This document shows positions 15,612-63,215 of a stretch of 64,000 bases of DNA, one piece after another (positions within the stretch are counted from its first letter, which is position 1; each line of letters starts with the position of its first letter). The position numbers were made by a program, and so were the translations under genes. The DNA is from Scenedesmus sp. PABB004. Lineage: Eukaryota. Where the stretch lies: NCBI GenBank assembly GCA_014905635.1, contig JABVCE010000022.1, positions 62,001 through 126,000 on the forward strand, written 5' to 3'. The notes below the pieces were generated by a model. That model was not told the DNA's origin, searched no databases, and saw only the letters and a program-made list of their open reading frames with translations.

Positions 15612-16974
15612 TCACTCGAGGATGTAATCCTCGTTCCACTCCTGCACGGTGGCAGCGCGCAGCACGCTCGCGGCGGTGTCGCCCATGCCCCAGGCCCCAC
15701 CAAAGCCGCCGGCGCCGGCGCCGCTGCGCCGCAGCTCCGCAGCGGCCGCCGAGCCCGCCCAGCCCCGGCCCAGCGGCCAGGGCGCCACAGCGGCCGGCAC
15801 GGCGCTGGCCGGCGCCTCCGGCAGCGGCGCCAGCATCAGCGCGCCGGTGCTGGTGGCCGGCACGGCGCCGGCGAAGGAGGCGCCGTGGCCGCCGCCGGTG
15901 GGGGCCACGCGGTCAAGCTCCACCGTGGCGGCCGGCACGAGCAGCGGCGGCTGCGCCCGCGCGCGGCGCGGCATGTCCCTGCAGGACGGAAAGCTGCAGC
16001 CGCGGCAGTAGTTGAGCGAGGGGCCGAAGCCCATCTGCACGCGCACCATGAGGCGCACCTCGCCCGGCTGCACGAACGCCGCGTGCTCCAGCCCGTGCTC
16101 CCACATGAGGAGCATGCCGCCCGACGGCACGTGCACCAGGGACGCCTGTCGGGCGGCAGCACGGGGGCGCGCGCGGAAGTCGCAGCACCGGCGCGGGCGG
16201 CCGCCCGGCTGCCGCCGCTGCGCGCGGCGGCGGGAGCGCCGCTGCCGGGTCGCTCAGCGTCGCGCCGCGCGCGCGCGCGCGCGCTCCGCAGCGCAGCCCT
16301 GCCGCCGCCGCGGCATGCGCACCTGGCCGGACTCGGCACGGCGCAGGTGCATGAAGGTGCCGCGCGCCCCGCTGAGCAGGTACAGCCCCGTGATCGTGTC
16401 CACCGCGGCGTCAACGTGCGCGTGCCCGCGCTGCGCCCAGCCCTCCTCGACCAGCCAGCTCGGCAGCGTGGTGTCGCCGCTCATGGCGCATCGTGTTGGG
16501 CGCCGCGATGTCGAGTGGCCCCTGCGCGCGCACGCGAAAGGCGCACTGCCGCAGCTGCGGCGCGCGGCGCCCCGCGGGCGCCAGCAGCGACGCCACGAAG
16601 CGCCACTCGTAGCTGCAGAGCGCCCAGTCCTCAATGTTCTCCCACATGTCCCTGAACAGGCTGCGTTGGGACGGCGGGCAGCGGGGGGTGCCGCCGAGTC
16701 AACGGCGGGGGTCGGCGCGGCAGGGCGGCACGGCAGGCGCCGCGCTCGCGCCACGCTGCGCTCAGCGTCACCCTGCCCCCCGCCCACCGGCGGCAGGGCG
16801 CGCCCTGCGTCTGGTAGGTGCGGGAGACGCGATAATGCGTGGGGGTGCCCCGCTGCGCCAGCGCGTAGTGCGCCAGCAGCACGCCCAGCGGCGTGTAGTG
16901 AGAGGCATGCTCCGGGTCGCGTCGGGGATGACCACGTAGCCCTGCTGGAGCATCTGCCACGACGCGGCGTCCAT
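15612..16974 (-). pseudogene. 2OG-Fe(II) dioxygenase-like gene with at least two frameshifts
   Basis: QGYVVIPDA near the start, then HAHVDAAVDTITGLYLLSG (HxD) and VPSGGMLLMWEHGLEHAAFVQPGEVRLMVRV (distal H and R). Protein-like frames are offset near 16915 and 16480 with no intron to explain them. Confidence 0.55.
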
Positions 16975-17652
16975 CTCGCGCCGCTGTGGCCTGTTTCAGG
17001 CGGCCGGCGATCAGAGGATGCCCATGGTCGGTGTTGGCGGCGGCGGCGCGCGCGCGGCGGTGGCAGCGCCGCGCACGCGCGCCGCGCGCCCGCGGCGTCG
17101 GGGCGCCCCCCGGGCGCCCCGGCAGCCCCCATCCCCCCAGCCGCCGGTGTTGAGACCACCGGCCGGCGCTCCCACGGCGGTAGCGAGGCCGGGGAGCACG
17201 CCCAGCGTCCATCTCGCGCCGCGACGGAATGCGCCGGCGCGCGCAGAGCCACAGGTGACCCGGGAGGACGTGCGGTGCGATCGGCCGCGACGGAATGCGC
17301 CCGGCGCGGGCGGGGCCGCGCGCAAGGCGGCCGCCACGCGGCGGCGCAGCGACGACTCAACCGCGACGCCGCTCGAGGCCACAGGCCGCCCGCCAGCGCC
17401 GCGGTAAGCAGCAGGCTCAGCCCGCTCAGCCCGCCCACGCGCCGACCGCGCCGACCGCGCCGCCGCCGCCGCTCGAGGCCTGCACGCTGCGCGCCGCCCG
17501 AGCAGCGCCGCCGCCCCAGGTGCGCCCCTTGTGGGCCGGGTGCCGCGTTCCCGTGGCCGGGGCGCCGCACGCGGCGGCCCCCAGCGCGTGCGCGCGCGCC
17601 GCTGCTGCGCTGCTGCGCGCCTCACGCCCGCCCGCCCGCCCGCGCAGGGTCG

Positions 17653-19406
17653 ATGGAGCCTGCCCGGAGACGTACCGTGTATGAGTGGGATGGGAGCACC
17701 TACCGCCCGGTCTCGCCGAGCCGCGTCGCCGTGCCGGGGGCCGCACAGCGCGCCCAGCCGGCGGCAGGCGCCGCGCCGGGCGCCGCGCACAGCAGCGCCT
17801 CCGGTGCCGCGGCGCGCCCGCGGGGGGCCGCTGGATGGCTGGGACGACGTGCGCAGCGTGTGGCAGGAGCTCTGCGAGCAGCACGACGTCGACACCGCGG
17901 CGTTCGGCGGCATTTTTGTCAGCGAGCACGCGCTGTCGGTCGAGGAGATCTTGCGCGCCGCCGCGAGCATGCCCCGCGCCAGCCTGCCCGCGGTCTGGCC
18001 GACCGGCGATGACTTCCACGCCGCCGGCGGCGCCGAGCACCTGCATGTCTTCGGCCGCCCCGTGCGGCCGTACGACTGTCAGGTGTGCGACAAGAGCGTG
18101 GAGCACCTCGCCGAGCAGCCCTACAAGAAGCGCCGCGTGTGCGAGGGTTGCTATGAGGTGCGCGGGCTGGGGCGCTCCCTGCGCGCGCGCGCGCGCGCGC
18201 GCGCGCCGCTCCACCGCGCGCAGCGCAGCCGCCGCCGCGGTTAACCACGCCGCCGCCTTCCGCGCGCAGGCCAAGGTGCTGCTGGCGCTGCCGCCCAACC
18301 CGGCCGTGCCGCCCGGCGCGCTGTCTGGCGAGTGGCAGCGCTTCTGCCACAGGTGCTACAAGCCGCACGTGCTGTCCGAGTTTGCAGGCGACCGCGCCAC
18401 ATGCAGCAGGCATGACGGCAGCAAGGAGCTGTGGCGGCCGCAGCGGCTCGAGCAGGAGCTCCTGCGCCAGCAGAACCTCCAGCAGCAACAGCTGCTGCAG
18501 CGCCAGCTCCTCTTGCAGCAGCAGCAGTGGCAGTGGCAGCAGCTGGCGGCGGCGGGCCCGGCGGCGCTCGCACCCGCGGGCGCGCTCGCGGGCGCGCCGC
18601 CGCCGGCGCGCCCGGAGCAGCTCCTGCAGTTCCTGGGGCAGCCGTTGCAGCAGCAGCAGCAGCCCCCGCTGCAGTGGGAGTGGCCGGCGGGGCAGCAGCG
18701 GCAGCAGCAGCAGCACCTGGGCCAGCAGCACATGCAGTCGCCGGCGCCCCCGGCGGCGGCCGGCGGCTTGCTCGCGCTGCTGGCGGCGACGCCAGGCCCC
18801 GGCGGCGGCGGCGGCGCGGCGGCGGGCCCGGCGGCGCTCGCACCCGCGGGCGCGCTCGCGGGCGCGCCGCCGCCGGCGCGCCCGGAGCAGCTCCTGCAGT
18901 TCCTGGGGCAGCCGTTGCAGCAGCAGCAGCAGCCCCCGCTGCAGTGGGAGTGGCCGGCGGGGCAGCAGCGGCAGCAGCAGCAGCACCTGGGCCAGCAGCA
19001 CATGCAGTCGCCGGCGCCCCCGGCGGCGCCGTGCCCCGACGCGCTGTATTGGGAGTGGCGGGGGCAGCAGCAGGAGTGGCAGCGAGAGCAGCAGCAACAA
19101 CAGCAGCAGCACAAGCGGGAGGTGGAGAAGCAGCGCCACAAGGTGGCGTCCCGGCGCTACCCGCCGATCGGCGGCTTCCTGGGCTGGGAGCGCTGCCGCT
19201 GCTCCTCCTCCTCCGCCTTTCCCCTCTCGGGCGGCCGGCGCTCGACGTACAAGTGCAAGGCCCCCCACTGCGTGGCGCGCCTGGTGGTGTTGAGCGACGA
19301 GCTCAACATCACCAGCAGCGAGGTGCTGGGGCAGCACAGCTGCCGCAGCCCGCCAGCGCACACGCAGCCGCAGCCGCTGGCGAAGAAGCGCTTCTGCCAG
19401 GGCTAG
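17653..19406 (+). CDS. Putative transcription factor: divergent SBP domain, Gln-rich region and WRKY-like C2HC zinc finger (copy 1)
   Basis: CQVCDKSV...YKKRRVCEGCYE|AKVLL...WQRFCHRCYKPHVLSEFAGDRATCSRH is SBP-like. RSTYKCKAPHCVARLVV...EVLGQHSC is C-x4-C-x21-H-x-C. A frame slip at the G-run 17822-17827 may be a sequencing error. Confidence 0.65.
18546..19028 (+). repeat. Intragenic direct repeat, two copies of about 213 bp at 270-bp spacing, in the Gln-rich region (also in copy 2)
   Basis: The peptide AAAGPAALAPAGALAG...QQHMQSPAPPAA is encoded twice. Confidence 0.9.
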
Positions 19407-19988: not shown

Positions 19989-20424
19989 AAGGCGCACTGC
20001 CGCAGCTGCGGCGCGCGGCGCCCCGCGGGCGCCAGCAGCGACGCCACGAAGCGCCACTCGTAGCTGCAGAGCGCCCAGTCCTCAATGTTCTCCCACATGT
20101 CCCTGAACAGGCTGCGTTGGGACGGCGGGCAGCGGGGGGTGCCGCCGAGTCAACGGCGGGGGTCGGCGCGGCAGGGCGGCACGGCAGGCGCCGCGCTCGC
20201 GCCACGCTGCGCTCAGCGTCACCCTGCCCCCGCCCACCGGCGGCAGGGCGCGCCCTGCGTCTGGTAGGTGCGGGAGACGCGATAATGCGTGGGGGTGCCC
20301 CGCTGCGCCAGCGCGTAGTGCGCCAGCAGCACGCCCAGCGGCGTGTAGTGAGAGGCATGCTCCGGGTCGCGTCGGGGATGACCACGTAGCCCTGCTGGAG
20401 CATCTGCCACGACGCGGCGTCCAT
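19989..20424 (-). pseudogene. 3'-truncated second copy of the 2OG-Fe(II) oxygenase-like gene
   Basis: Same 5' exons as 16538-16974, cut at the duplication junction before the HxD motif. Confidence 0.6.
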
Positions 20425-21101
20425 CTCGCGCCGCTGTGGCCTGTTTCAGGCGGCCGGCGATCAGAGGATGCCCATGGTCGGTGTTGGCGGCGGCGGCGCG
20501 CGCGCGGCGGTGGCAGCGCCGCGCACGCGCGCCGCGCGCCCGCGGCGTCGGGGCGCCCCCGGGCGCCCCGGCAGCCCCCATCCCCCCAGCCGCCGGTGTT
20601 GAGACCACCGGCCGGCGCTCCCACGGCGGTAGCGAGGCCGGGGAGCACGCCCAGCGTCCATCTCGCGCCGCGACGGAATGCGCCGGCGCGCGCAGAGCCA
20701 CAGGTGACCCGGGAGGACGTGCGGTGCGATCGGCCGCGACGGAATGCGCCCGGCGCGGGCGGGGCCGCGCGCAAGGCGGCCGCCACGCGGCGGCGCAGCG
20801 ACGACTCAACCGCGACGCCGCTCGAGGCCACAGGCCGCCCGCCAGCGCCGCGGTAAGCAGCAGGCTCAGCCCGCTCAGCCCGCCCACGCGCCGACCGCGC
20901 CGACCGCGCCGCCGCCGCCGCTCGAGGCCTGCACGCTGCGCGCCGCCCGAGCAGCGCCGCGGCCCCAGGTGCGCCCCTTGTGGGCCGGGTGCCGCGTTCC
21001 CGTGGCCGGGGCGCCGCACGCGGCGGCCCCCAGCGCGTGCGCGCGCGCCGCTGCTGCGCTGCTGCGCGCCTCACGCCCGCCCGCCCGCCCGCGCAGGGTC
21101 G

Positions 21102-22855
21102 ATGGAGCCTGCCCGGAGACGTACCGTGTATGAGTGGGATGGGAGCACCTACCGCCCGGTCTCGCCGAGCCGCGTCGCCGTGCCGGGGGCCGCACAGCGC
21201 GCCCAGCCGGCGGCAGGCGCCGCGCCGGGCGCCGCGCACAGCAGCGCCTCCGGTGCCGCGGCGCGCCCGCGGGGGGGCCGCTGGATGGCTGGGACGACGT
21301 GCGCAGCGTGTGGCAGGAGCTCTGCGAGCAGCACGACGTCGACACCGCGGCGTTCGGCGGCATTTTTGTCAGCGAGCACGCGCTGTCGGTCGAGGAGATC
21401 TTGCGCGCCGCCGCGAGCATGCCCCGCGCCAGCCTGCCCGCGGTCTGGCCGACCGGCGATGACTTCCACGCCGCCGGCGGCGCCGAGCACCTGCATGTCT
21501 TCGGCCGCCCCGTGCGGCCGTACGACTGTCAGGTGTGCGACAAGAGCGTGGAGCACCTCGCCGAGCAGCCCTACAAGAAGCGCCGCGTGTGCGAGGGTTG
21601 CTATGAGGTGCGCGGGCTGGGGCGCTCCCTGCGCGCGCGCGCGCGCGCGCGCGCCGCTCCACCGCGCGCAGCGCAGCCGCCGCCGCGGTTAACCACGCCG
21701 CCGCCTTCCGCGCGCAGGCCAAGGTGCTGCTGGCGCTGCCGCCCAACCCGGCCGTGCCGCCCGGCGCGCTGTCTGGCGAGTGGCAGCGCTTCTGCCACAG
21801 GTGCTACAAGCCGCACGTGCTGTCCGAGTTTGCAGGCGACCGCGCCACATGCAGCAGGCATGACGGCAGCAAGGAGCTGTGGCGGCCGCAGCGGCTCGAG
21901 CAGGAGCTCCTGCGCCAGCAGAACCTCCAGCAGCAACAGCTGCTGCAGCGCCAGCTCCTCTTGCAGCAGCAGCAGTGGCAGTGGCAGCAGCTGGCGGCGG
22001 CGGGCCCGGCGGCGCTCGCACCCGCGAGCGCGCTCGCGGGCGCGCCGCCGCCGGCGCGCCCGGAGCAGCTCCTGCAGTTCCTGGGGCAGCCGTTGCAGCA
22101 GCAGCAGCAGCCCCCGCTGCAGTGGGAGTGGCCGGCGGGGCAGCAGCGGCAGCAGCAGCAGCACCTGGGCCAGCAGCACATGCAGTCGCCGGCGCCCCCG
22201 GCGGCGGCCGGCGGCTTGCTCGCGCTGCTGGCGGCGACGCCAGGCCCCGGCGGCGGCGGCGGCGCGGCGGCGGGGCCCGGCGGCGCTCGCACCCGCGGGC
22301 GCGCTCGCGGGCGCGCCGCCGCCGGCGCGCCCGGAGCAGCTCCTGCAGTTCCTGGGGCAGCCGTTGCAGCAGCAGCAGCAGCCCCCGCTGCAGTGGGAGT
22401 GGCCGGCGGGGCAGCAGCGGCAGCAGCAGCAGCACCTGGGCCAGCAGCACATGCAGTCGCCGGCGCCCCCGGCGGCGCCGTGCCCCGACGCGCTGTATTG
22501 GGAGTGGCGGGGGCAGCAGCAGGAGTGGCAGCGAGAGCAGCAGCAACAACAGCAGCAGCACAAGCGGGAGGTGGAGAAGCAGCGCCACAAGGTGGCGTCC
22601 CGGCGCTACCCGCCGATCGGCGGCTTCCTGGGCTGGGAGCGCTGCCGCTGCTCCTCCTCCTCCGCCTTTCCCCTCTCGGGCGGCCGGCGCTCGACGTACA
22701 AGTGCAAGGCCCCCCACTGCGTGGCGCGCCTGGTGGTGTTGAGCGACGAGCTCAACATCACCAGCAGCGAGGTGCTGGGGCAGCACAGCTGCCGCAGCCC
22801 GCCAGCGCACACGCAGCCGCAGCCGCTGGCGAAGAAGCGCTTCTGCCAGGGCTAG
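21102..22855 (+). CDS. SBP plus WRKY-like zinc-finger protein (copy 2)
   Basis: Duplicate of 17653-19406, with extra 1-bp G-run slips near 21271 and 22272. Confidence 0.6.
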
Positions 22856-40021: not shown

Positions 40022-43000
40022 TCACCCCGCCGCGTGCGCGGCCGCGGGCGCCGCGTAGTCGTCGCCGCACTCGAGGTTGGCGCCGCCGCGGCGCAGGCCC
40101 ACGAGCTTGGCCCAGGTGTCGCACAGCTCGCCCATGAAGCCGACATACATGCAGAGCACGTACAGGTCCAGCACCGCAAAGCCGGGCAGCGGCGACTTGC
40201 AGGCCATGTATATGTGCGTGAGCGAGACCGCGGGGTCGCGGAAACGGTCGCCGTCCACGCCCGCGCCGTACCTGCGCGGCAGTGTCGGTCGCGCGGCGGC
40301 GGCGTCGGTTGGTCGGTCGGTCGACCGCGCGCGTGGGCGGGCGCGGCGTCTCGCCCGCGCGAGCGCGGCCGCGCCGCCCCGCGCCGCGGCCCCGCCGGGC
40401 CGCGTCTCTCCCGCGCGCGCGCCCCCGCTCCCGCGCGGCGGCGCACCGTATCTTGGAGAAGGCGAGGTTCTGGAAGGCGTAGAGGTTGTTGGCGCAGTGG
40501 AAGAGGTACAGGTTGCTCCAGCGCACCCAGTGCGCGATGCGGGGGAAGGCGTCGTCGCGGACGTTGAAGAAGGGGGCGAACCCAAACGCGAGCTCCGCCC
40601 GCCCCTCGCCCCGCAGCGCGCTGATGATGCCCTCGTACAGCAGCTTCAGCGTGCCTGCGCGCGCACGAGGGCGGCGGCGGCGCGGGCGGGTGGGCGGGGC
40701 GCGGGCGCGGGCGGCGCGGGCGGCGCAGGCGGGCGCGCGGGGCGAGCAGGGCGGGCGGCGCGGGCGGGCGGCGCGGGCGGGCGGCGGCGCGGGCGGGCGG
40801 TGCGGGCGGGCGGCGGCGCGCACCGGAGTGGGCGCTGCGCTTCATCCGGCAGATGCTCGACACGTAGCCGCGCTCGGTGCCGCCCTCCCAGAGCGGGTCG
40901 AGCAGGACAAAGCCCACGAGCTCGGGCTCGCGCGGCGCGTCGGGCTCCTCCTGCGCGTGCCGCTCCTCGTGGTGGATGATGCCCGGCGCCGCGCCGCCGG
41001 CGCCCACGCCGCCGGCGCTCGCGCTCGGGCCCGCGCCGCCGGCGCCCGCGCCCGCGCCTGCGCCCGCGCCCGCGTCGCTCGGGCGGGCGCCGCCGAAGCT
41101 CGGCATGCTGGTCAGGCTGGCCATGCCGGTGAGGCTGGGCATGCCGGACAGCAGCCCGCTGAGCGAGCCGGTGCTGCTGGCGGTCGTGAGCACGCTGTTG
41201 CTGCGGCTCAGCCCGCCCGAGTGCTGGGACGCGAGGCTGCGCGAGCTCTTGTTCCGCGGCGGCTTGGGCGGCTTGGCGTTGGCGGGCACGCCCTGCAGCA
41301 CCGGGTCGACCACCGCCGGCGGCGCCGACGACGCGGGGTGGTACTGCTCCGCGACGAACAGCCGCACGCCGTCCTGCAAGCCGCGGCGCGGCGGCGCGCG
41401 GCGGCGTCAGCGCGGCGGTGCGCGGCGGGACGCGCGGCCTGCCCCCGGGGACGCGCGGTCTGCCCGCGGGGACGCGCGGTCTGCCCGCGGGGCGGCGCGG
41501 GCGCGCGGGCGCGGCTGCCGCGTGCCTGCAGTCGGAGGTTGTCGTAGTCGACGTTGCGAATGAACACGCGCAGCTCGCGGTCGGCGACGGCCTTCTGCTG
41601 CAGCCAGTCGCCCGAGACGTCGTGCTGCAGCTTCCAGCGCAGCTCGGGCGTGAGCTCGTCGCCGCGCACCTCGCGCACGCGCACGCCGGCGTCGCGCGCG
41701 GCGCGCGCGGCGCTGCGCACGGTGCGCGTCTTGGCGGTGTATGTCCAGCTCTGGACCTGCGCGGCGCGGCGCGCACGCCGCGCACGCGTCAGCCCGGCGG
41801 CACGCACGCGCGACCGCTCGAGCCTCGCCGCGCCGCTGCCGCGCCGCCGCCGCGCCGCCGCCGCGCCGCGCCTGCAGCGTCGTCTCCGCGCCGACGTCGT
41901 TGATGCAGTAGCCCATGTCGTGCAGCAGGGCCGCGTAGTCGGCGCTCGCGTGGTAAAAGTAGGTGGTGGGAAACTCGGTGATGAAGGCCTCGGTCAGGCC
42001 GCGCCAGGCCGGCGCGGCGGCGAGCGGGTCGCCGATGACCGACACGACGACGCGGTTGTACATGTCGCCGACGATGAACGGCAGGCTGCCGACGCCGGGG
42101 ACGAAGAAGTGAATGAACTCCGGGTTGAACAGCTGGCGGCGGGCGGCGGCGCGGGCGGCGGGCGGGCGGGCGGCGGGCGGGGGCGGGCGGGGCGGGCGGC
42201 GCGAGCGGGGGCATGAGTGGGACGGAGGGAGGGACCGGGAGTGAGCGGGACGGAGGGACGGAGAGAGCGGGGTGGGAGCGAGAAAGCGAGCGAGGGCGCG
42301 CGCGCGCACCTGGCTGTTGGCGATGGCGTTGCGGCCGTACTGCCGCATGTAGGGCCCCACCAGCCGCCACGCGTCCGAGTCGTGGCCTGGCGGCGAGGCG
42401 CGCGGCGCGGGCGCGGCGCGGGGGCGGGGTTGGGCGCGCGCCGCGCTGGCCGCCGCCGCGCCGGGCGCGCCGCGGCAGCTGCTGGCCCTGCCGGGGCGCG
42501 GGCCAGGCCGCAGCCAGCCCGCCCCAGGCCGCCAGGCAGCTCCCCGGCCCGCGCCGCACACCCTTGGCGGGCTCGTTGTAGAGCAGGATGGGCTTGGCGC
42601 CCGCCCCCGAGGCCACCGCGCGCAGCATGATGCGCGGCGCCTTGGCCTCGCCGGCCTCGGCCTCGGCCTTGCCGTCGGCGGGCGGCGTGTCCGGGTCCGC
42701 GCCCGCCGGCGCCGCAGCCGCTGCTGCGTCGCCGCCGGCTCCGTCCGGCGCTGCCGCTGCCTCGTCGCCGCGCGGCGCAGCTGTGGGGCCGGCGTCCACC
42801 AGCTTGACGCGCGCCCCACGTCCCGAGGCGGCCTTGGCGATGGCCGGCGGCGTCCAGACACGGCGCTGCAGCCAGCCGACCGTGGCCAGCAGCTCCAGCA
42901 CCAGCCAGAAGCCCGTGCCCACCAGCACCTGCATCGCCTTCCACCCGACCGCCAGAGCCACCGCCTGCAGTGCTGCCACCACCCGCGCGCCGCGCGCGGG

Positions 43001-43039
43001 CGGCGGCGCGCCAGGCGCGCCTGGCGCCGGGGCGGGCAT
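40022..43039 (-). CDS. Free-standing DUF2156 / MprF C-terminal-like (aminoacyl-tRNA-dependent transferase) protein with an N-terminal membrane anchor
   Basis: The spliced product has VIGDPLA, GYCINDVGAETTL, RTVRSAARAARDAGVRVREV, DWLQQKAVADRELRVF, VRLFVAE, LVGFVLLDPLW, CRMKRSAHS|GTLKLLYEGIISALRGEGRAELAFGFAPF and LYAFQNLAFSKIR|YG, in the order expected for the dual-GNAT DUF2156 domain. About 7 introns. Confidence 0.8.
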
Positions 43040-43602
43040 GCCGCGCTGCCGCGCGGGGCTGCTGGCCCAGGCAGGCCCCGCCTGGGCGCCCGAGGTGTCC
43101 GGGCCTCCTCTAGAGCGCCTCGTGGGTCGCTCGCGGCGCCTCCTGGACGCCTGGAGGCCGCGTGCGAGCCGGGGGCGTCGGGGAAAGGGGCGCCGGCTGG
43201 TTCCTGCCGCCTGCCGCGCGCTGGCCGGCCACTGGCGCCCGCGCGTGGCGCGTGGTGCGTGACGCTTGCGCGCCGCGAACTAGCGCGCGCGGAGCGAGCG
43301 TCAGGGGCGGGGCGAACGGCGCGGCCGAGCTGCCGCGGCTCAGGGTCGCGAGCCACCGATCCCCGGCCCCCACCAGCGGCACCCCCGATCTGCCGATGAC
43401 TCGCCTGAGCTCTCGGAACTGCGCGCCGCGCTGACGCGGCCTGCACGCGGGGTGGCCTTGGTCAGCGGCGGGCTGACCGCCTCGCAGCCTGGCACTCCCC
43501 AACCGGCGGCGCGCAGCGCACGCCAGAGCGCCGGCTGCCATCGTTGCCCCACCCGCCCGGACCGGAGCAGCAGCTCGCCTGCACTTGTGCAGCGCCGGCC
43601 GG

Positions 43603-46243
43603 TCAGCGGCAGGCTGGCGGCGCGGCCGCGCGCCGCGTGGGCACCAGCCACATGCCCTGCGCGACGCGCAGCTCCAGCGCCGCGACCGTCTGCGCCAGCA
43701 CGCCCGCGGGGCCGCCCATGCGCGGCGCGAGGCGCCATGAGAAGCAGGAGAGCAGCAGCGCCATCAGCACCTGCGGTCGCGGAGCAGCGCGGGGAGCTCA
43801 GCGTGCGAGCGCGCGCGCACGCGCGGGCCGCCGCCGCCGCCGCGCTCCACACCTTGCACTGCACGAGCGCGAGGTGCTGCGCGACGCAGGCCTTGGGCCC
43901 GATCCCAAACGGCACGAACCGCGCCGCGCCGCTGCCCGGGTGCGTCGCGTAGGTCGGGTCGTCGAGCCAGCGCCGCGGGTCAAACTGCGGCACGGCGCGT
44001 GCGGGCAGCGGGTCGTAGGTCGGCGGGGAGGTTGCGGGCCGGCGCGGCCGCACGCTCGCCGCGGCCGCCGGCCCGCGCGCGGCCTGGTGGCGGCACCTTG
44101 TGGGGCTCCTCCCAGTTGCCGCTGAACATTAGGATGGAGTAAAGGCAAGGGAAAACGATCACGCCGGCCGGCAGCCGGTGCGGGCCGAGCTGCGTGACGC
44201 GCTCCGTCATGCTGCGGCGCGGCCGCGGTCGCGGGCGGCGGGCGTCGCCGGGGCTGCGCGCGGCCGGCGCGGCGCGCGGCGCGCGCGGCAGGCGGCCGGC
44301 GCGGCGAGGCGCGGCGGCGCGCGTGCCGCTGCCTCACCGCGGCGTGGCGGCGACGCCGGCGGGGAACATTCGCATCGCCTCGCTGAGCACCGCGCTGCAG
44401 AATGGCAGCTGGCGCAGAAGGTCCATGTGCAGCGCTGCCGCGGCGGCGGCCGGGTCGCCGTCGCAGGGCAGCCCCGCCGCGCGCAGCTCCGCCACGCAGC
44501 CCGCCTCGGCCTCTGGGTGCTGCGTGAGCAGGTACCTGCGGCGGCGCGGCGCGTACACGCGCGGGTTTTGAGCGGGGCGTGCACGTGCATGCGCGGCGGC
44601 GCGCCGCCCCACGGGCCCGGCGCCAGCGCGCAGCGCGCCGCGCCGCGCTCACAGCGTCCACGCCAGCGTCCAGGGCACCGACTCCTGGCCCACGATCTGC
44701 AGGAATGCCTCCGCCTGCAGCGCCGGCGCGCTCAGCGGCGCGCCCGTGGCGGGGTCTGTCACGCGCGCGAGGCAGGCGGCGAGTGACACGTCGCCCGGCG
44801 CGGCGGGGCGCGCCGCCGCGACGTGCGCCGCGATCGCCGCCGTCACGGCCATGAGCTGGCGGCGCTGCGCGTGGAAGCGCCGCGCCTCCTGCGCGCACGC
44901 GGCGGGGCACGGGGCGGGCCGTTGCTGGCGCACGCGGGCGGGGGCGTTGCTGGCGCGCGCGGGCGGGCGCGGCCGGCCGGCCGGCGCACGCGCTGCGCCG
45001 CCGCCGCTCCGCCGCGCCGCCGCGCCGCCGCGCCGCCCGCACCCGGCAGAGCCCCGGGAGCGCGAGGTATGCCCAGCGCTTCCAGGGGCGCGTGACAAAG
45101 GTGTTGGTGATCGCCACGAGCGACGCGGCGGCCTCGGCGACCGCGGCGGCGTCGCCGAGCGCGGCGCGCGGCATGCGCAGGAAGCCCTCTGCCAGCAGGT
45201 TGATGGTGGCAGCAAAGATCTCCTCGTCGATCAGCACCTCCCCCTCGCCCGCTGGCTGCTGCTGCTGCCCCGGGCGCTGCTGCTGCGGCCCCGGGACGTG
45301 CAGCGACGCGCCGCTCGCGATGCGCCCGCACACATCGGCGTAGCAGCGCACGATGGCCGGGAACACCTCCCTGCGAGGCAGGCGCGGCAGCGCAGGGAGC
45401 CACTGGCGCGCCGCCCTCGCGACGGCGGCGCGGGGCCAGCCGAGCGCGGCCGTCCCGCGCTGTGGCCGCGGGCGCCCGCCGCACCTGACCGCGCTGAGCG
45501 CGTACGCCGGCGCGATGGCGCGCCGCAGCGCCCGCCAGCGCTCCTCGTTCTGCTCGGTCAGGATCGCGCTGCAGCCGCGCTGCCCGTGCGCCTGCGGCGC
45601 GGCGGCGGCGCGGGCGACGCGGGCGGCCGCGGCGTCGCGCCGCCGCCCGCCTGCACCGCGCGGCGCCGCGCGGCGCCGCCGCACACGCGTGCGCGCGCGC
45701 TCACCGAGTCGAACAGCGTGTACTCGGGCGTGCGGCGCGCGCACTCGTTTGGGCCCTTTGCGAGCACCTGCGCCGCGAGGCCGGGGTCTGCCACGAGCAC
45801 GAGGTCCCGGTGTAGGATGCGGATGCGCACGAGCGGCCCGAGCGCCTCGTGCCAGGCCAGGAACTGCTCGTGGCCGTTGGCGAGGTGCAGGGCCATCTGC
45901 AGCACGTGGCCGAGCACCGGGATGCCCCAGGGGCTCGGGACGCGCAGCAGGTCGAGCGTCGTCCAGCGCCGCACGACGAACCACCACGCCGCGAGCAACG
46001 CTAGTGCGGTGTAGGCGGCCAGAGCGGCCAGAGAAGTCGGAGACGGGGAGTGTGCGCCGGGCTCCTGGCGGCGCGGCGGCAGCAGCTCGCGGGCAGCGGC
46101 TGCGGCGACGCCCGCGCGGTGGCGGCGCCGAGCGCGGCGCGCACCGCCTGGGACTGCGCTCCAGCTCCCACCGCGACGGCTGCCAGCACCGCCAGCAGCA
46201 CGGCAGCAGCAGCGCCCCTCGGCGCGCGCCGCGGCGCGGCCAT
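43603..46243 (-). CDS. Cytochrome P450
   Basis: Pro hinge VPSPWGIPVLGH, C-helix WRALRR, I-helix IVGQESVPWTL, ExxR (EAMRMFP), FDPRRW and heme loop FVPFGIGPKACVAQHLA. TGA at 43603. Confidence 0.92.
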
Positions 46244-46655
46244 CGCTGGCGCCGTCCCGACCGGCGCCTGCGCGGCGCGGCGCCTGCCGAAACAGCAAGC
46301 CAAGCACGGCCCGCGACTCCCGGGATTTGCCCACGGCACGCCTCCGCGGCCGACCTGCGCGAGACGCGCAGAGGCCGCGCAGCCACACGCGGCGCCCCTG
46401 GTCTGCGCGTGCCGGGGTCGCGTCCGCGCTCGGATGACTCCACGCAAACTGCGCGGCCGACGCGCAGCAGGCCCCTGCGGGGCACCAGAGCAGCTCACCA
46501 GGCGCGCGCGTGACGGCGGCGCCGCGGCACACCGCCGCCGCCCACCCGGCCGCGCCCACCCCGCGCCAGGCCCTCGACGCGTCGCCCGCCTGAACGCTGC
46601 AGCTCCCGGCAGCGCCCCGGCCGGCCGCGCCCGCCCTGCCGCGACCGCAGCAGAA
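46244..46655. promoter_or_regulatory. Short head-to-head intergenic region, probable bidirectional promoter of the P450 and the methyltransferase
   Basis: About 410 bp between opposed ATGs at 46243 (-) and 46656 (+). Confidence 0.5.
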
Positions 46656-48544
46656 ATGGCCGACCACCGCGCCCAGCTCTACGACGCGGTGGGCCAGATC
46701 TGGCTGGAGCTGTTCGGGGAGCACGTTCATGTCGGTGAGCGAGCTGCGGGCCGGCGAGCGGGCCCCAGCGCGCGGCGCGGGGGGCGCGCGCGCGCGATGG
46801 CATGCGCCCGCCTGGCGCCCGGCGCACGCGCCCGCCGGGGCACGCCGGCGCGGGTACGAGTGCGGCCATAATACAGCGTCCCAACGCGCCGGCGCCGGCG
46901 CCGCCCAACGCGCCGCAGCGTACTACCCCGACACGGCGACCAGGGCCAAGGCAACCTGGCAGGAGGCGCAGCTGGCGCACGTGGACGCGGTGCTGGAGTT
47001 TGCGGGCGTGAAGAAGGCCGCGAGGGTGCGCGCCTGACGCGGCGGCGCCAGCGGGTGGCGCGCGCGCCTGCGCCCGCAGCGTGCGCAGTCCGCGCAGTCC
47101 GCGCGCGCGAGCCCGCCGCCGCCCGCCGCCGCGGCCGGCAGCTGCTGGACCTGGGCTGCGGCTACGGCGGCACGGCGGTGCACGTGGCGCAGCGGCTCAA
47201 GTGCAAGGCGGTGGGCATCAACATCTCGCCCTTCCAGGCGCGGCGCGGCGGCGGCCACCGCGCGCGGCGCGGCGCGGCGCGGCGCGGCGCGCCGGCGGCC
47301 ACCGCGCGCGGCACGGCGCGCGGCACGGCGCGACGCGGCCGAGCCCAGGCCCCGCGCGCGTGCGACCGCGCCGGCCGCCGCCACGGCGTGCGCAGGTGCA
47401 GGCCGCGAACCGGCTGGCCGAGCGCTGCGGCTTCGGCCGCGACGAGGTGTGCTTTGTCGTCGGCGACGCGCTCGCGCCGGACCTGCCGGACGGGCGCTTT
47501 GACCTCGTGCTCTCGGTGGAGAGCGCGGCATACATGCCGGACAAGGAGTGAGCCGGGGTGGCAGCCGGGGTGGCAGCCGGGGTGGCAGGGGGAGCCTCGG
47601 CTCGGTTGCTGGCTGCTGGCCGCGGGCGGGCGGCTGGTTGCCGGCGGCTGGCGCGCGCGGCGCGGCGCGGCGCGGCACGGCGCGGCCGGCCCACGCCCCC
47701 CCCCCCCCCCCCCCCGCGCGCGCGCGCCGCAGGCGCTTCGTGGCCCAGCTGTCGCGCCTGTGCGCGCCGGGTGGGACGGTCGTGCTCGTTGACTTTTGCC
47801 GCCGCCCGGGCCCGGTCAGCGAGCCGCTGCGCGCGCGCCTGGCGCGCATGGACCGCATCTTTGCCACGCCCGGCAACTGGACGTCGGCGGAGGAGTACCA
47901 GCAGCTCATGGGTGAGAGAGCGCTGGATCGCTGGGCTGTGTGCCAGCTGGCGTGCTTGCCCACATGCCGGGGACCCCCCGGGCTGGGCCGAACAAGCAAC
48001 GCGCCCGCCGCGCCCGCCGCGCCGGCCGCGCCCGCCGCCGCGCCCGCCGCAGGCTCCAGCGGGCTGAGCGTCGTGCGCGACGGCAACTGGACGCGCCAGG
48101 TGTGCGGCTTCTGGAACGTGGGCATGTGGGCGCTGCTCACGCGCAACGCCAACCCCGGGCAGAGCTGGCTCTCCTGGTATGGCGAGTTCAGCCGCCGGGT
48201 GCGTCACGCGCCCGCCCGCCCGCCGGCCGCCGGCCGGCCGCCGCCGCCGCGCGCGCGCTCGCTGCCGCGCCAACGCCGCTCCGCCGTCGCGGCGCGGCCG
48301 CGCCCGCCCGGCCGCCCGCCCGCCGCCGCGCCGCCGACCGCGCCCCGCCCCCGGCCGCGCCCGCCGCCGCGCCCGCCCGCCCGCGCAGTGCGCGGTCTGC
48401 CTGTGGCTCTTCCTCGTGGGCGGGCGCGCGGTGCTGGGCATGGGCCTGGGCTACCTGCTGGGCAGCCAGAAGCGCGTCGTGCAGGGCGGCCTCGACAGCG
48501 GCGCGCTCGAGTACCACGTGATTGTGGCCAAGAAGCCCAACTGA
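46656..48544 (+). CDS. SAM-dependent methyltransferase, gamma-tocopherol methyltransferase-like but divergent
   Basis: WLELFGEHVHV|AYY, LLDLGCGYGG, GINISPFQ, GDALAPDLPDGRFDLVLSVESAAYMPDK and RLCAPGG..VDFCRR. No transit peptide. A hydrophobic stretch lies near the C-terminus. Confidence 0.85.
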
Positions 48545-55700: not shown

Positions 55701-57396
55701 TCCCGCCCTGCTGCCGACGCGCGCAGACGCTGGAAACCAACAGCATGGTGGAGGAGCTGATGCTGCTCGCCAACGTGGCCGTCGCGACCGCCATCACGGC
55801 GCGCTTCCCCTCCTGCAGCCTGCTGCGCCGCCACCAGACGCCGGGTGCGCGCGCGGCGCGGCGCCGCGCGCTGGCGTGCGGCTGTGCGTCCTCCCGCCCC
55901 GCGCCGCTGCCGCCGCCTGCGCCCCGCAAAGACGCCTCCCCGCGCCGCCCGCCGCCCGCCGCGCGCCGCGCCTCGCCGCCGCCGCCGCAGCGCCGCGCCA
56001 GTTTGAGCCGCTGCTCGCGGCCGCGGGGTGCGCGGGGTTTGCGCTCGACGTGAGCAGCAGCAAGGCGCTCGCGGGCAGCCTCGACGCCGCGGTGCGCCCC
56101 GACGACGCCTACTTCAACAAGCTCGTGCGCATCATGGCCACGCGGTGCGCGGGCGGGGCGCCAGGGCGCAGGGTTCAGCGCCGAGGGCGGGCTGCTCGGC
56201 GCTCCGGCGCCACCTCGCCGAGCCCCTCCACGCCGCCCGCCCCGCGCCCGCCCTCCCCCGCCCACCCCCGCCCGCCCGCCCTGCGCCCGCTCGCGTCTGC
56301 CCGGCACCCCGCGCGCGTGCGGCGCAGGTGCATGACGCAGGCGCAGTACTTTGGCAGCGGCGAGGTGGGCGCGCCCGAGTACCACCACTACGGCCTCGCC
56401 TCGCCCATCTACACGCACTTCACCTCGCCCATCCGCAGGCGCGCGCGTGTGGTGTGTGCGTGCGCGTGTGTGCGTGCGCGTGTGTGCGTGCGCGTGTGGC
56501 GCGGGCGTGCGTGTGTGTGGTGTGGGTGTGTGGTGTGGGTGGGTGGGTGTGGGCCTTGGGTGTGGTCTGCGCGGGGCGGCGGCGCGGCGGCGGCACGTGG
56601 TGCCACGTGGCGCGGCGCGGCGCGCAGGTACGCGGACGTCGTGGTGCACCGGCTGCTCGCGGCGACGCTCGGCATCGCGCCGCTGCCCGACGCGGTGCGC
56701 GACAGCGACGCGCTGCACGACTGCGCGGGCAACCTCAACACGCGGCACAGGCGCGGACGGGACGCGCCCGGCGCGCAGAGCCGGCGCGCGGCACAGCCCC
56801 CGGGGCACAGGGGCCCCGCCGCCGCCGCCAGGCTCGCTGACCGGCGCGCCGCCGCCACCGCCGCCGCCGCCGTTTCTTGTTCCCCGCGGCCGCCGCGCGC
56901 GCGCGGCCTTGCAGGAACGCGCAGATGGCGGGCCGCGCGAGCGTGGAGCTGCACACGCTCATCTTCTTCAAGGACCGCCCCGTGCTCGCCGACGCGCGCG
57001 TCGTCAAGGCGCGCGCCGCAGGCTGCTGCTGCGCCCCGCCCCGCGCGCGCGCCGCCCGGCCGCGTGCTCTGGCCGCGCGGCTGGCGAGGTTGCCGCGCCA
57101 CGCCGCCGCAGGTCAAGGCCAACGGCCTGGTCGTGTTCGTGCCCAAGTTTGGCATCGAGGGCCCGGTCTATTTGGTGCCAAAGGACGCGGCGAACAACAG
57201 CAACCAGGCCCCGCCCGCATACGCGCTCGACGAGTCGGGCCAGGCGCTCGTGAGCGCCGACGGCGCGACGCGCTTCGCCGTGTTCGACAAGGTTGCCGTG
57301 CGCATCGAGGTCGAGGAGGGCGCCGCGCACCGGCGCAGCCTCGCGCTCGCGCTCGTGCCGCGCGACGAGCTGCCGCCGGGCGACGTCGTGGCGTGA
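51174..57396 (+). CDS. DIS3: Exosome catalytic subunit DIS3/RRP44 (PIN, CSD, RNB and S1 domains)
   Basis: [68 protein letters not shown] and [26 protein letters not shown]. About 22 introns. Confidence 0.97.
53692..53759 (+). repeat. Degenerate telomere-like heptamers in a DIS3 intron
   Basis: TTTAGGG, GTCAGGG, GACAGGG, CACAGGG x2, CTTAGGG and TTTTAGG. Confidence 0.6.
55506..55609 (+). repeat. (AGGGCTC)n heptamer array, a telomere-variant-like repeat, in a DIS3 intron
   Basis: Ten perfect copies at 55506-55575 followed by degenerate copies. Confidence 0.9.
56447..56565. repeat. GT-rich degenerate microsatellite in a DIS3 intron
   Basis: A (GT)/(GGT)/(GCGT) mosaic is directly visible. Confidence 0.8.
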
Positions 57397-61158: not shown

Positions 61159-63215
61159 TCACGCCTCGATCGTGCGCGCCAGCTGCACCCGCGGCGCGTC
61201 CGCGCGCAGCGGCGCCGCGCCCGGCGCGTGCGCGCCGCGCGTGAACGCGACGCGCCCGCTGCGCGTGGCGCCGTCGGCGGTGGTGAGGCTCCAGTCGTAG
61301 TCTCCGAAGAAGCCCGTGAAGTTGACCGCCGGCCCGGCCAGCCCCGCCGCGGGCACGTCGAGCGCGGTCGTCCACTCCTCGGCCCACAGCCGCCGCACCG
61401 CGTGCCACGCGGCCTTGCGCCGCCCGCCCGCCGCGACGAAGCCGGCGCGCTTGACCCACATGTTGTCGTCGGCAAAGCCCCAGCAGAAGATCGCCTGCAC
61501 CGCGGGGTGCTCAAACCACATCCTGAACAGCGCCTCGGTCACGCCCGCCTGCGTGGCCTCGTCGATGTAGCTGACCGGGCCCGGCTCGCCGCTGCTCGCG
61601 CGGCCGTCCCAGGTGGACATGAGCGAAAACTCGGTGATGACCAGCGGCAGGCCGAGCGTCGCCAGCAGGTCCAGGTTGCGCCGCTGCTTCGCGAGGTCGA
61701 TGCCCTTCAGCTCAAAGTGCGCCTGCCGGTCGCGGCGGGCGCGGCACGGCGCGCGGGCGGGTGGGCGGGCAGGAGGAGGGCGAGGGCGCGGCCGCGCTGC
61801 GCGCGCGGCGGCGCGCAGGCGGCGGGGCGCGGCGCGGCGCGGCGCGGCGCGGCGCGGCGCGGGTCGCGCGCCTGGATGCCGATGCAGTGCACGGGCGCGC
61901 CGTGCGCGAGCAGGTGCTCGCGCACGATGCGCATGAGCTCCGGCGCCGCGTCGGCCTCGATCAGGCTGAAGTCGTTCTGCGACCCCACGGCGGTCCCGGC
62001 CGGGCGGGGCGGGGCGGGGCGGGGCGGGGCGGGGCGGGGTGCGTCAACGGCGGCGGCCCCGCGCCAGCGCCGGTGGCGCGCGGGCGAGGCCGCCGCGCCG
62101 CGCGCCGCTGCGCCGCACCAGGCAGAGCGTGGCGTTGGGGTCGGCCGCGGCGGCCCACTTGAACGCGTCGGGCAGCGCGGTGTCCCAGAGCCCGCACTCG
62201 TCGAGCTTGCCGCGCCACGCGATGATCTCGTTGAACACGTCGTAGGTCGTGAACCGGCCCGCAAACGCGGCGACGTCGCGCGTCACGCGCTCCCGCAGCG
62301 CCTCCACGTACGCGTCGCACGGCAGCTCGTGCGCCCAGAAGTGGTCGGTGCGGTACCACTCGAGCGTGTGGCCGCGGCGCATGGCGAACCCGCGGTCGGT
62401 GGCCCAGCCGGTGTAGTTGGCGGCCAGCGCGGCCGCGGCGGCGCTGGCGTTGCCGCGGCGGGGCTCAAAGTTGAACCACTTGAAGCGATTCTCCGGCACG
62501 ATGCCCCAAAACATCTCCTCGGCGGCCGCGAGGTAGGCCTGGGGGTCGGGCGCGGTCTCGGGCTGCAGCGCGGTGCCAAACACAAACTCGTGCCGCGCGA
62601 GGCGCAGGCTCAGCGACGTCGCGTTGACGGCCGGCGGCAGCGACAGCGAAAAGTCGCCGGTGCGGTGCGCGACCGCCGCGGCCGCGGCCGCCGCCGAGCG
62701 GGGGCGCAGCAGCTGCTGCTGCCAGGGCGGCCCCGGGAGCTGCTCCTGTTGCGACGACTGCTGCCAGGGCGGCCCCGGGAGCTGCTCCTGCTGCTGCGGC
62801 TGCTGCCAGGGCGGGCCCTGCTGCTGCTCCTGCTGCTGCGGCTGCTGCCAGGGCGGGCCCTGGAGCTGCTCCTGCTGCTCCTGTTCCTGCTGCTGGCGCT
62901 GCCAGGGCGGGCCGGGGATCTGGGACTGCTGGTGCCGCTGCCACAGCGCGTCGGGCTGCTGCCAGTGCGCGCCCGCCGCCGCCGCCATGCCGGCCGCCGC
63001 TGGCTGCTCGTAGGAGCTCCAGGGTGACATGCTGAGCTCCTGGGGGTCCCAAGAGGACAGGATCGGCCCTGCGGCGGCGCGCATCGGTTGCGGTTGCAGC
63101 GCAGCGGGGCACGCGGCGGTTGCGCCTGCAGCTCCGCGATCGGCTGCGCACCCGGCCCGGACGCTCGCACAAGCGTCGCGGCCAGCGCCAACGCCAGCAG
63201 CGATCGCGCAGCCAT
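61159..63215 (-). CDS. Secreted glycoside hydrolase family 10 (endo-1,4-beta-xylanase-like)
   Basis: Signal peptide MAARSLLALALAATLVRA, then FVFGTAL, IVPENRFKW, RGHTLEW, YDVFNE (acid/base), NDFSLIE, IGIQ|AHF, LPLVITEF (nucleophile) and HPAVQAIFCWGF. Confidence 0.9.
62710..62925 (-). repeat. Five coding repeats of PGPPWQQ...QQEQ upstream of the GH10 domain
   Basis: CCCTGGCAGC-containing unit on the minus strand, about 39-48 bp period. Confidence 0.85.

Follow-up and report, generated by a model that had tools for sequence, protein, structure and literature searches.

A 64,000-nucleotide stretch of the genome of the green alga Scenedesmus sp. PABB004 (contig JABVCE010000022.1, positions 62,001 to 126,000; hereafter the window, in whose own numbering its features are given) carries at 40022-48544 three intron-bearing genes with no gene between them, which encode a DUF2156 (PF09924) protein, a cytochrome P450 and a class-I S-adenosylmethionine (SAM) methyltransferase. 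The DUF2156 protein looks, from its own residues and from the structural model of an orthologue, like a free-standing, catalytically intact transferase with a single membrane anchor. Descriptions of tRNA-dependent lipid aminoacylation exist for bacteria and, from 2020 on, for higher fungi; with an intact membrane-anchored DUF2156 family in green algae, such chemistry would reach into the plant lineage as well. A shared hydrophobic substrate at the membrane for the P450 and the DUF2156 enzyme is a tentative reading that stops just short of being probable; that all three genes belong to one pathway is a distinctly more doubtful proposition. The main rival to the pairing of the P450 with the DUF2156 enzyme is adjacency by chance.

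The G+C content is 74-82% throughout the window and stop codons are scarce in all six frames, so that long open frames carry little meaning. When three frames were read on each strand, protein-like exons with shifts of frame between them were found for the DUF2156 protein, the P450 and the methyltransferase, as is expected of spliced eukaryotic genes. The splice junctions of the first two genes were chosen by the best alignment to two guide proteins, P0001 for DUF2156 and P0002 for the P450, both of which map collinearly onto the window in tblastn; those of the methyltransferase were chosen by splice consensus alone, without a guide protein. The three models (that of the P450 taken from 46004) have no internal stop, and each ends in a stop codon. 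The donors of the 19 resolved introns are GT in 16 cases and GC in three, the latter at best-model junctions at 41871 and 41525 on the minus strand and at 47238 on the plus strand. Between the P450 stop and the DUF2156 ATG, both on the minus strand, lie 563 bp (43040..43602), and between the divergent ATG codons of the P450 and the methyltransferase lie 412 bp (46244..46655), a candidate shared promoter. Neither gap leaves room for a further gene, and the adjacency and spacing that an earlier note on this DNA had described are borne out. Non-homologous enzyme genes lie side by side here, as they do in metabolic gene clusters.

Two other claims of that note concerned the proteins themselves. 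Hydrophobic segments, taken as 19-residue Kyte-Doolittle windows of at least 1.6, do occur in all three, and none of the three has an N-terminal extension, in agreement with the claim that no obvious plastid transit peptide is present. The three enzyme assignments of the note are judged right. In profile scans of single exons one P450 exon scored above the PF00067 cut-off, and the exons matching PF09924 and Methyltransf_11/25 scored below theirs.

The DUF2156 transferase

The DUF2156 gene runs on the minus strand from 43039 to 40022 and is modelled with seven exons (43039-42562, 42386-42310, 42132-41872, 41756-41526, 41373-40824, 40654-40447 and 40271-40022, stop included) encoding 684 residues, with a GT donor at four of its introns and a GC donor at two. 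Because the introns split the domain, exons taken one by one reach only 17.5 and 19.7 bits against PF09924 (LPG_synthase_C), for which the cut-off is 27.5. The guide P0001, an orthologue from Tetradesmus obliquus (OEZ86_005718, 632 residues) that is 65.6% identical to the window model over 608 positions, scores 74.2 bits against the same cut-off. Its only sequence match in the PDB is 4v36, the lysyl-phosphatidylglycerol synthase of Bacillus licheniformis (E 4.3e-6). In a 72-sequence alignment of the family, the window model keeps 19 of the 19 columns that are invariant or nearly so.

An AlphaFold model of P0001, computed from the same 72-sequence alignment, has a mean pLDDT of 74.6 and a pTM of 0.70, with core blocks at 90 or above. 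It shows a single long N-terminal helix (residues 2-41) and a disordered insert, in which pLDDT falls below 50 (residues 325-441); the window protein has a long low-complexity insert inside exon 5, and its hydrophobic windows start at residues 36-39 and 630-634. All of the 17 best PDB chains found by Foldseek for the P0001 model are MprF/aaPGS synthase domains, with the isolated domains reaching TM-scores of 0.78-0.82 on the target, and the next ranks are taken by aminoacyl-tRNA-dependent peptide synthases and FemX. The stretch aligned to model helix 231-245 carries five K/R against one D/E in 18 residues, both in P0001 and in the window model, and may be read as a charged helix between the two halves of the transferase.

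Neither a flippase nor an aminoacyl-tRNA synthetase (aaRS) is fused to this enzyme. Hydropathy and the P0001 model give one N-terminal hydrophobic segment and no flippase domain, and the MprF equivalog of NCBIfam scores 52.4 bits against a cut-off of 600. The Pfam scan of P0001 returned PF09924 only, and the gene model showed no exon resembling an aaRS. The algal enzyme must therefore draw on the cellular pool of aminoacyl-tRNA.

Compared with the C-terminal domain of MprF/aaPGS (4v36, 4v34, 5vrv, 6lv0 and 7duw), the algal protein has the same fold and keeps the near-invariant residues, but it lacks the 14-helix flippase, is only 9-14% identical in structural alignments, and is encoded by an intron-containing gene in a eukaryotic host. 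In being a eukaryotic PF09924 protein fused to neither flippase nor aaRS it is like the fungal ergosteryl-3beta-O-glycine synthase ErgS, which, according to excerpts of the fungal work, must use the aminoacyl-tRNA pool of the cell (PMC8913301). In an Atlas search the clusters nearest to the algal transferase were the fDUF/ErgS proteins of Ascomycota (score 0.92), which we treat as a lead only. Unlike ErgS and ErdS, however, the algal protein is equipped with a hydrophobic anchor at its N terminus, and the two halves of its T. obliquus orthologue are parted by a disordered insert of about 120 residues. ErdS, in addition, is joined with an aspartyl-tRNA synthetase, a fusion that the algal protein lacks, and its gene is accompanied by that of the hydrolase ErdH, whereas the algal neighbours are a P450 and a methyltransferase. 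The fungal erdS gene is kept adjacent to erdH, as excerpts of PMC7334510 have it, so that gene linkage around PF09924 is known in eukaryotes too.

Proteins were searched with single exons through an exact-word index, which is weak evidence on absence. For DUF2156 this search gave an orthologue from T. obliquus only, one of 421 candidates. A HMMER search of 1.84 billion representative sequences gave 588 relatives at E <=1e-3, 31 of them at <=1e-30; many of the 588 are short, highly similar fragments, and several are long, alanine-rich proteins. We labelled relatives as algal-looking by their alanine-rich composition and by their clustering with P0001, and in a maximum-likelihood tree of 81 proteins (a quick IQ-TREE search with SH-aLRT support only, containing no named fungal sequence) the proteins so labelled form one clade of 13 rows with an SH-aLRT of 100. 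One relative, P0052 (751 residues), has a long C-terminal extension that on reading resembles an alpha/beta-hydrolase, and may be a fused synthase-hydrolase.

As judged by titles and the opening lines of abstracts, full-text searches gave no paper that ties algae to DUF2156, to enzymes of the MprF type or to the aminoacylation of lipids. Excerpts of the fungal work state that the sterol conjugate went undetected in other eukaryotes, that elsewhere there might be cryptic transferases, and also that the acceptor and the amino acid cannot be read from a DUF2156 sequence (PMC8913301).

The P450 and the methyltransferase

The P450 gene lies on the minus strand between 46243 and 43603. Its resolved exons end or run as follows: ...-45705, 45591-45485, 45370-45043, 44888-44653, 44535-44338, 44211-44097, 43984-43853 and 43770-43603 (stop included), and each of the seven resolved junctions pairs a GT donor with a CAG acceptor. 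A short putative first exon would begin at ATG 46243, which is the sole minus-strand ATG between 46600 and 46005; its frame differs from that of the next exon, and several canonical donors (46172, 46145 or 46190) could be joined to the acceptor at 46064. Against PF00067 (cut-off 22.8) the exons score 24.6, 22.7 and 16.8 bits, the highest score being that of the exon with the heme-binding cysteine loop, which is readable in frame. From 46004 on, the protein has 527 residues and is 67.3% identical over 520 positions to P0002, a 562-residue EukProt transcript record that carries PF00067. This record, from a source other than T. obliquus, was the only orthologue among 2,883 candidates in the search with the first large exon.

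P0002 matches 245 distinct PDB P450 sequences at E <=1e-5. Its best relatives are 7wzl (79.1 bits), of which a full-text literature search found no mention, and then LUT5/CYP97A, CYP3A4 and CYP46A1; since the best of these reaches only 79.1 bits, the algal P450 is divergent. An N-terminal hydrophobic anchor (Kyte-Doolittle maximum 1.95 near 46028) and a proline-rich hinge are present, and the enzyme is, to judge by its sequence, a P450 of the endoplasmic reticulum (ER) type.

The methyltransferase gene is on the plus strand, from 46656 to 48544, with seven exons (46656-46734, 46919-47025, 47142-47237, 47396-47547, 47733-47911, 48053-48198 and 48389-48544, stop included) and a product of 304 residues, whose hydrophobic windows start at residues 254-256. 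Exons 3 and 4 match Methyltransf_11/25/23/31 and CMAS at E 2e-5 to 4e-3; because the exons are short, all of these matches, with 19-24 bits for Methyltransf_11/25 and CMAS, are below the curated cut-offs. These weak exon hits suggest a class-I SAM fold. Searches with the methyltransferase gave generic SAM-motif matches only, far below the cut-offs, in NCBIfam, MitM only (E 0.36) in the PDB, and bacterial clusters only, with few shared features, in Atlas.

The motifs at the N and C termini of the methyltransferase, which we take to resemble those of gamma-tocopherol methyltransferase (gamma-TMT), bear on a rival explanation, namely that the gene is simply the tocopherol gamma-methyltransferase VTE4 and is unrelated to its neighbours; Pfam sees only a generic class-I fold, which, on those weak hits, the algal protein would share with VTE4 and the gamma-TMT-like N-methyltransferases. 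VTE4 is a plastid enzyme, whereas the algal model opens, at ATG 46656, directly on the conserved core. The sole in-frame ATG further upstream, at 46434, would add 74 codons, and their G+C at third and second codon positions (GC3 0.72, GC2 0.82) is not that of the methyltransferase exons (GC3 0.92-0.94, GC2 0.27-0.53). On this codon-position profile the stretch from 46434 does not look coding, which supports the start at 46656 and leaves no transit peptide apparent. Because the protein is without an N-terminal extension, we regard its identity with the ordinary plastid VTE4 as unlikely, and the search with exon 5, in which no relative was found among 95 candidates, also speaks against it. Taken as a whole, the VTE4 explanation is improbable.

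Neighbours of DUF2156 genes in bacteria

A scan of prokaryotes, with one genome per species and an alignment of three stand-alone, bacterial-looking DUF2156 relatives as the query, gave a single locus, in a metagenome-assembled genome of the Thiotrichaceae (G001). There (locus L001, 7959-10398) a stand-alone DUF2156 gene and a P450 gene share a strand, with the P450 gene 41 bp downstream; the two proteins score 140 bits on PF09924 and 263 bits on PF00067, respectively, and the genome contains no other P450 match. A DUF2156 orthologue was present in 48 of 151 relatives of G001, and 30 of these loci (L003 and L049-L077) were examined with 1.5 kb of flank each. An orthologous P450, 52-85% identical to that of L001, was found within this distance at 22 of the 30, directly downstream on the same strand in 19 cases, convergent in two and as an upstream fragment only in one. 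DUF2156 identity across the 30 loci is 45-67% (100% in G001 itself), so that they are not near-copies.

An even sample of 401 genomes was drawn from the class (its P450 table includes four genomes marked unpublished). Three of them, G001, G285 and G102, were the only ones with the stand-alone DUF2156 orthologue (47-48% identity), and these three alone also had an orthologue-level P450 (57-58% identity); beyond them, P450 matches did not exceed 35% identity. The DUF2156 gene of G285 and G102 lies between SelO and ProC. No methyltransferase was found among the 10 open reading frames (ORFs) of at least 120 residues within 8 kb in L001. Among the papers listed for DUF2156 and LPG_synthase_C there was no description of a bacterial DUF2156-P450 operon, although no search combined DUF2156 with P450.

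Like the algal locus, the Thiotrichaceae-related operon has a free-standing PF09924 gene beside a P450 gene on the same strand; unlike it, the DUF2156 gene comes first, the reverse of the algal order, and the proteins are not orthologous to those of the alga. The L001 P450 and P0002 have the same two best PDB relatives (7wzl and LUT5/CYP97A), and among eight proteobacterial DUF2156 proteins compared with the algal one the P450-linked protein was the best, if only slightly (75.9 vs 68.6 bits). This two-gene operon would be a simpler bacterial counterpart of the proposed algal ER pathway.

Methyltransferase genes adjoin DUF2156 in another lineage. Even sampling of the phylum (401 genomes) added 11 DUF2156 loci, and at those of two related genomes a gene for a 230-residue class-I methyltransferase is located 23-52 bp upstream of DUF2156. 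Among the relatives of one genome, G614, a methyltransferase gene was directly upstream of DUF2156 at 30 of 30 loci (L078-L107; compare L038, 4210-6756), but DUF2156 identity is 86-100% and the lineage is effectively one genus-like group. A gene for an Asp/Glu/hydantoin racemase is convergent with DUF2156 in this lineage and overlaps its 3' end; outside the reference locus the racemase is 57-83% identical, as compared with 86-96% for the methyltransferase and DUF2156.

A third arrangement was seen in eight closely related genomes (L041-L048), which have the common order ABC-2 transporter, DUF2156, PhoX. At five of the eight loci DUF2156 is adjoined by an FMO-like gene whose Pfam match is Lys/Orn-oxygenase-like, and at three a PAP2 gene was found; the PhoX and PAP2 neighbours hint at a link to phosphate starvation. 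At several of these loci Pfam gave no score to the DUF2156 ORF as called. Locus L039 (3851-7472) encodes a fused MprF-like protein of 852 residues, with a fatty-acid desaturase gene 35 bp downstream; upstream of the fused gene is one for a 1,013-residue aminotransferase-class-III protein.

An oxygenase or a methyltransferase is thus a fixed neighbour in three of the four stand-alone bacterial DUF2156 lineages reached, and there is a precedent in print. VlmA, a PF09924 enzyme of valanimycin biosynthesis, uses seryl-tRNA to put serine on the hydroxylamine that the monooxygenase VlmH produces, and 179 VlmA/VlmH pairs are reported in 3,146 actinobacterial genomes, according to excerpts of PMC9379638. 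The same excerpts, together with those of a review (PMC12945691), describe Ady1-like methyltransferases that recur near VlmA/VlmH pairs and tailor related products. In the valanimycin (VlmA/VlmH) and azodyrecin (Ady7/Ady3/Ady1) gene clusters, as in the alga, a PF09924 transferase gene adjoins that of a monooxygenase, there the maker of the acceptor hydroxyl, and a SAM methyltransferase serves for tailoring (PMC9379638). The earlier note had listed only lipid hydroxyls as established acceptors of DUF2156 enzymes, a list that the O-aminoacylation of a hydroxylamine by VlmA makes incomplete (PMC9379638, in part), and it follows that the acceptor of the algal enzyme need not be a lipid.

Descent of the algal pair from the bacterial operons was considered and rejected, as the algal DUF2156 proteins are a separate clade and the P450s are 24% identical. 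With separate clades, and with neither the P450 nor the methyltransferase close to its bacterial counterpart, the operons are precedents and analogies and not orthologous gene order. By analogy they suggest a broader rule, that an oxygenase or a methyltransferase may often be the partner of a stand-alone PF09924 enzyme; the algal partnership is not thereby demonstrated. If true, the rule would help in mining PF09924 enzymes for new aminoacylated metabolites.

A shared pathway or chance neighbours

In the pathway envisaged for the alga, the DUF2156 enzyme would ester an amino acid from a charged tRNA onto a hydroxyl of a hydrophobic acceptor. The P450, encoded 563 bp upstream of DUF2156 on the same strand, would make the hydroxyl that is later aminoacylated, or, alternatively, would tailor the aminoacylated product. 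The methyltransferase, divergent from the P450, may methylate the product, for example on its free amino group. In its fullest form, with the P450 hydroxylating a lipid, sterol or prenyl-lipid in the ER, the DUF2156 enzyme esterifying it and a gamma-TMT-like enzyme methylating the amino group, this proposal is possible and, on present evidence, rather unlikely. If true, tRNA-dependent aminoacylation of lipids would be on record for the plant lineage for the first time, and a new lipid class with it; and if the P450 and the methyltransferase are partners of the transferase, the locus supplies three candidates for the genes of a single pathway. We infer the sharing of a pathway by the algal neighbours, the order of the steps and their location at the membrane, and the cluster gains indirect support, by analogy, from the linkage of DUF2156 to P450 and methyltransferase genes in bacteria.

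The rival that survives best is that the three are chance neighbours, real and probably active genes in unrelated processes, with the DUF2156 enzyme acting alone on a membrane lipid as ErgS does. We consider this a serious contender, if not one that we would call probable. Genes are packed closely across the window, and those on either side of the trio have unrelated housekeeping functions. On the minus strand are genes for a protein kinase (about 36.7-37.7 kb) and a TrmO-like protein (about 34.1-34.7 kb), and on the plus strand is one for a DIS3/Rrp44-type exoribonuclease (about 53.9-57.2 kb). No dedicated hydrolase or aaRS was seen among the flanking genes read near the trio, and no tRNA gene was found within the 64-kb window.

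Several further observations weigh against a shared pathway and fit chance adjacency. P450s and class-I methyltransferases are large families, from which a chance neighbour could be drawn, and metabolic gene clusters are rare in green algae. The single-exon searches gave at most one match per gene, from different sources, with no sign of a conserved trio; read literally, this weak evidence would mean that the trio is not conserved. Two scans of metagenome contigs, one queried with an alignment and one with P0001, gave no relative. The bacterial parallels have gaps of their own. No P450 was in the flank at eight of the 30 loci of the Thiotrichaceae-related lineage, one of the eight being at a contig end, and G285 and G102 carry DUF2156 and the P450 on different contigs. 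In the 81-protein tree the algal DUF2156 clade is separate from, and not nested among, the P450-, methyltransferase- and FMO-linked bacterial proteins. Over 235 residues the L001 P450 shares 24% identity with P0002, to which it is no closer than the best PDB P450 (76.6 vs 79.1 bits), and phmmer gave no match between the bacterial and the algal methyltransferase.

Against chance stands the linkage to an oxygenase or methyltransferase gene in three of the four bacterial lineages, together with the published VlmA/VlmH pairs (excerpts of PMC9379638), which raises the prior for an oxygenase partner of such a transferase. By a rough, uncomputed estimate, moreover, a P450 would be found beside a given gene in well under 1% of cases.

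The VlmA/VlmH precedent also offers an explanation of its own, in which N-hydroxylation of an amine by the P450 is followed by O-aminoacylation of the resulting hydroxylamine by the DUF2156 enzyme, with aminoacyl-tRNA as donor, the ester rearranges towards an N-N or N-O bonded product and the methyltransferase caps this as Ady1 does in azodyrecin. We think this very improbable: VlmA is indeed a PF09924 enzyme that works with a monooxygenase, Ady1-like methyltransferases recur beside such pairs (PMC9379638 and PMC12945691, both in part), and an FMO-like gene resembling Lys/Orn N-oxygenases adjoins DUF2156 at five of eight loci of one bacterial lineage, but those systems are actinobacterial and soluble, with a two-component flavin N-hydroxylase and VlmB/VlmO/VlmR partners, whereas the algal oxygenase is a membrane P450, VlmB/VlmO/VlmR-like genes were not seen in the trio, and the algal transferase is membrane-anchored, its best structural matches being the lipid-modifying domains of MprF.

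Other features of the window lie away from the trio. At about 16567-19400 and 20018-22830 the same peptide segments come back with corresponding offsets (16567-16692 with 20018-20143 and 17810-17962 with 21260-21412 are instances), and Q-rich inner units of about 270 bp are repeated as well (18597, 18867, 22045 and 22316); the whole suggests that about 3.4 kb of one gene has been duplicated in tandem. Between RNB-domain exons of the DIS3-like gene, at about 56400-56590, there is a low-complexity GT/AC-rich tract, probably part of an intron, that several frames translate as repeats of His/Thr or Cys/Val. On the minus strand at 61423-62421 are exons with weak matches to glycosyl hydrolase family 10 (E 3.5e-4 and 1.3e-3), after which a Q/P-rich repeat is found at about 62707-62973.

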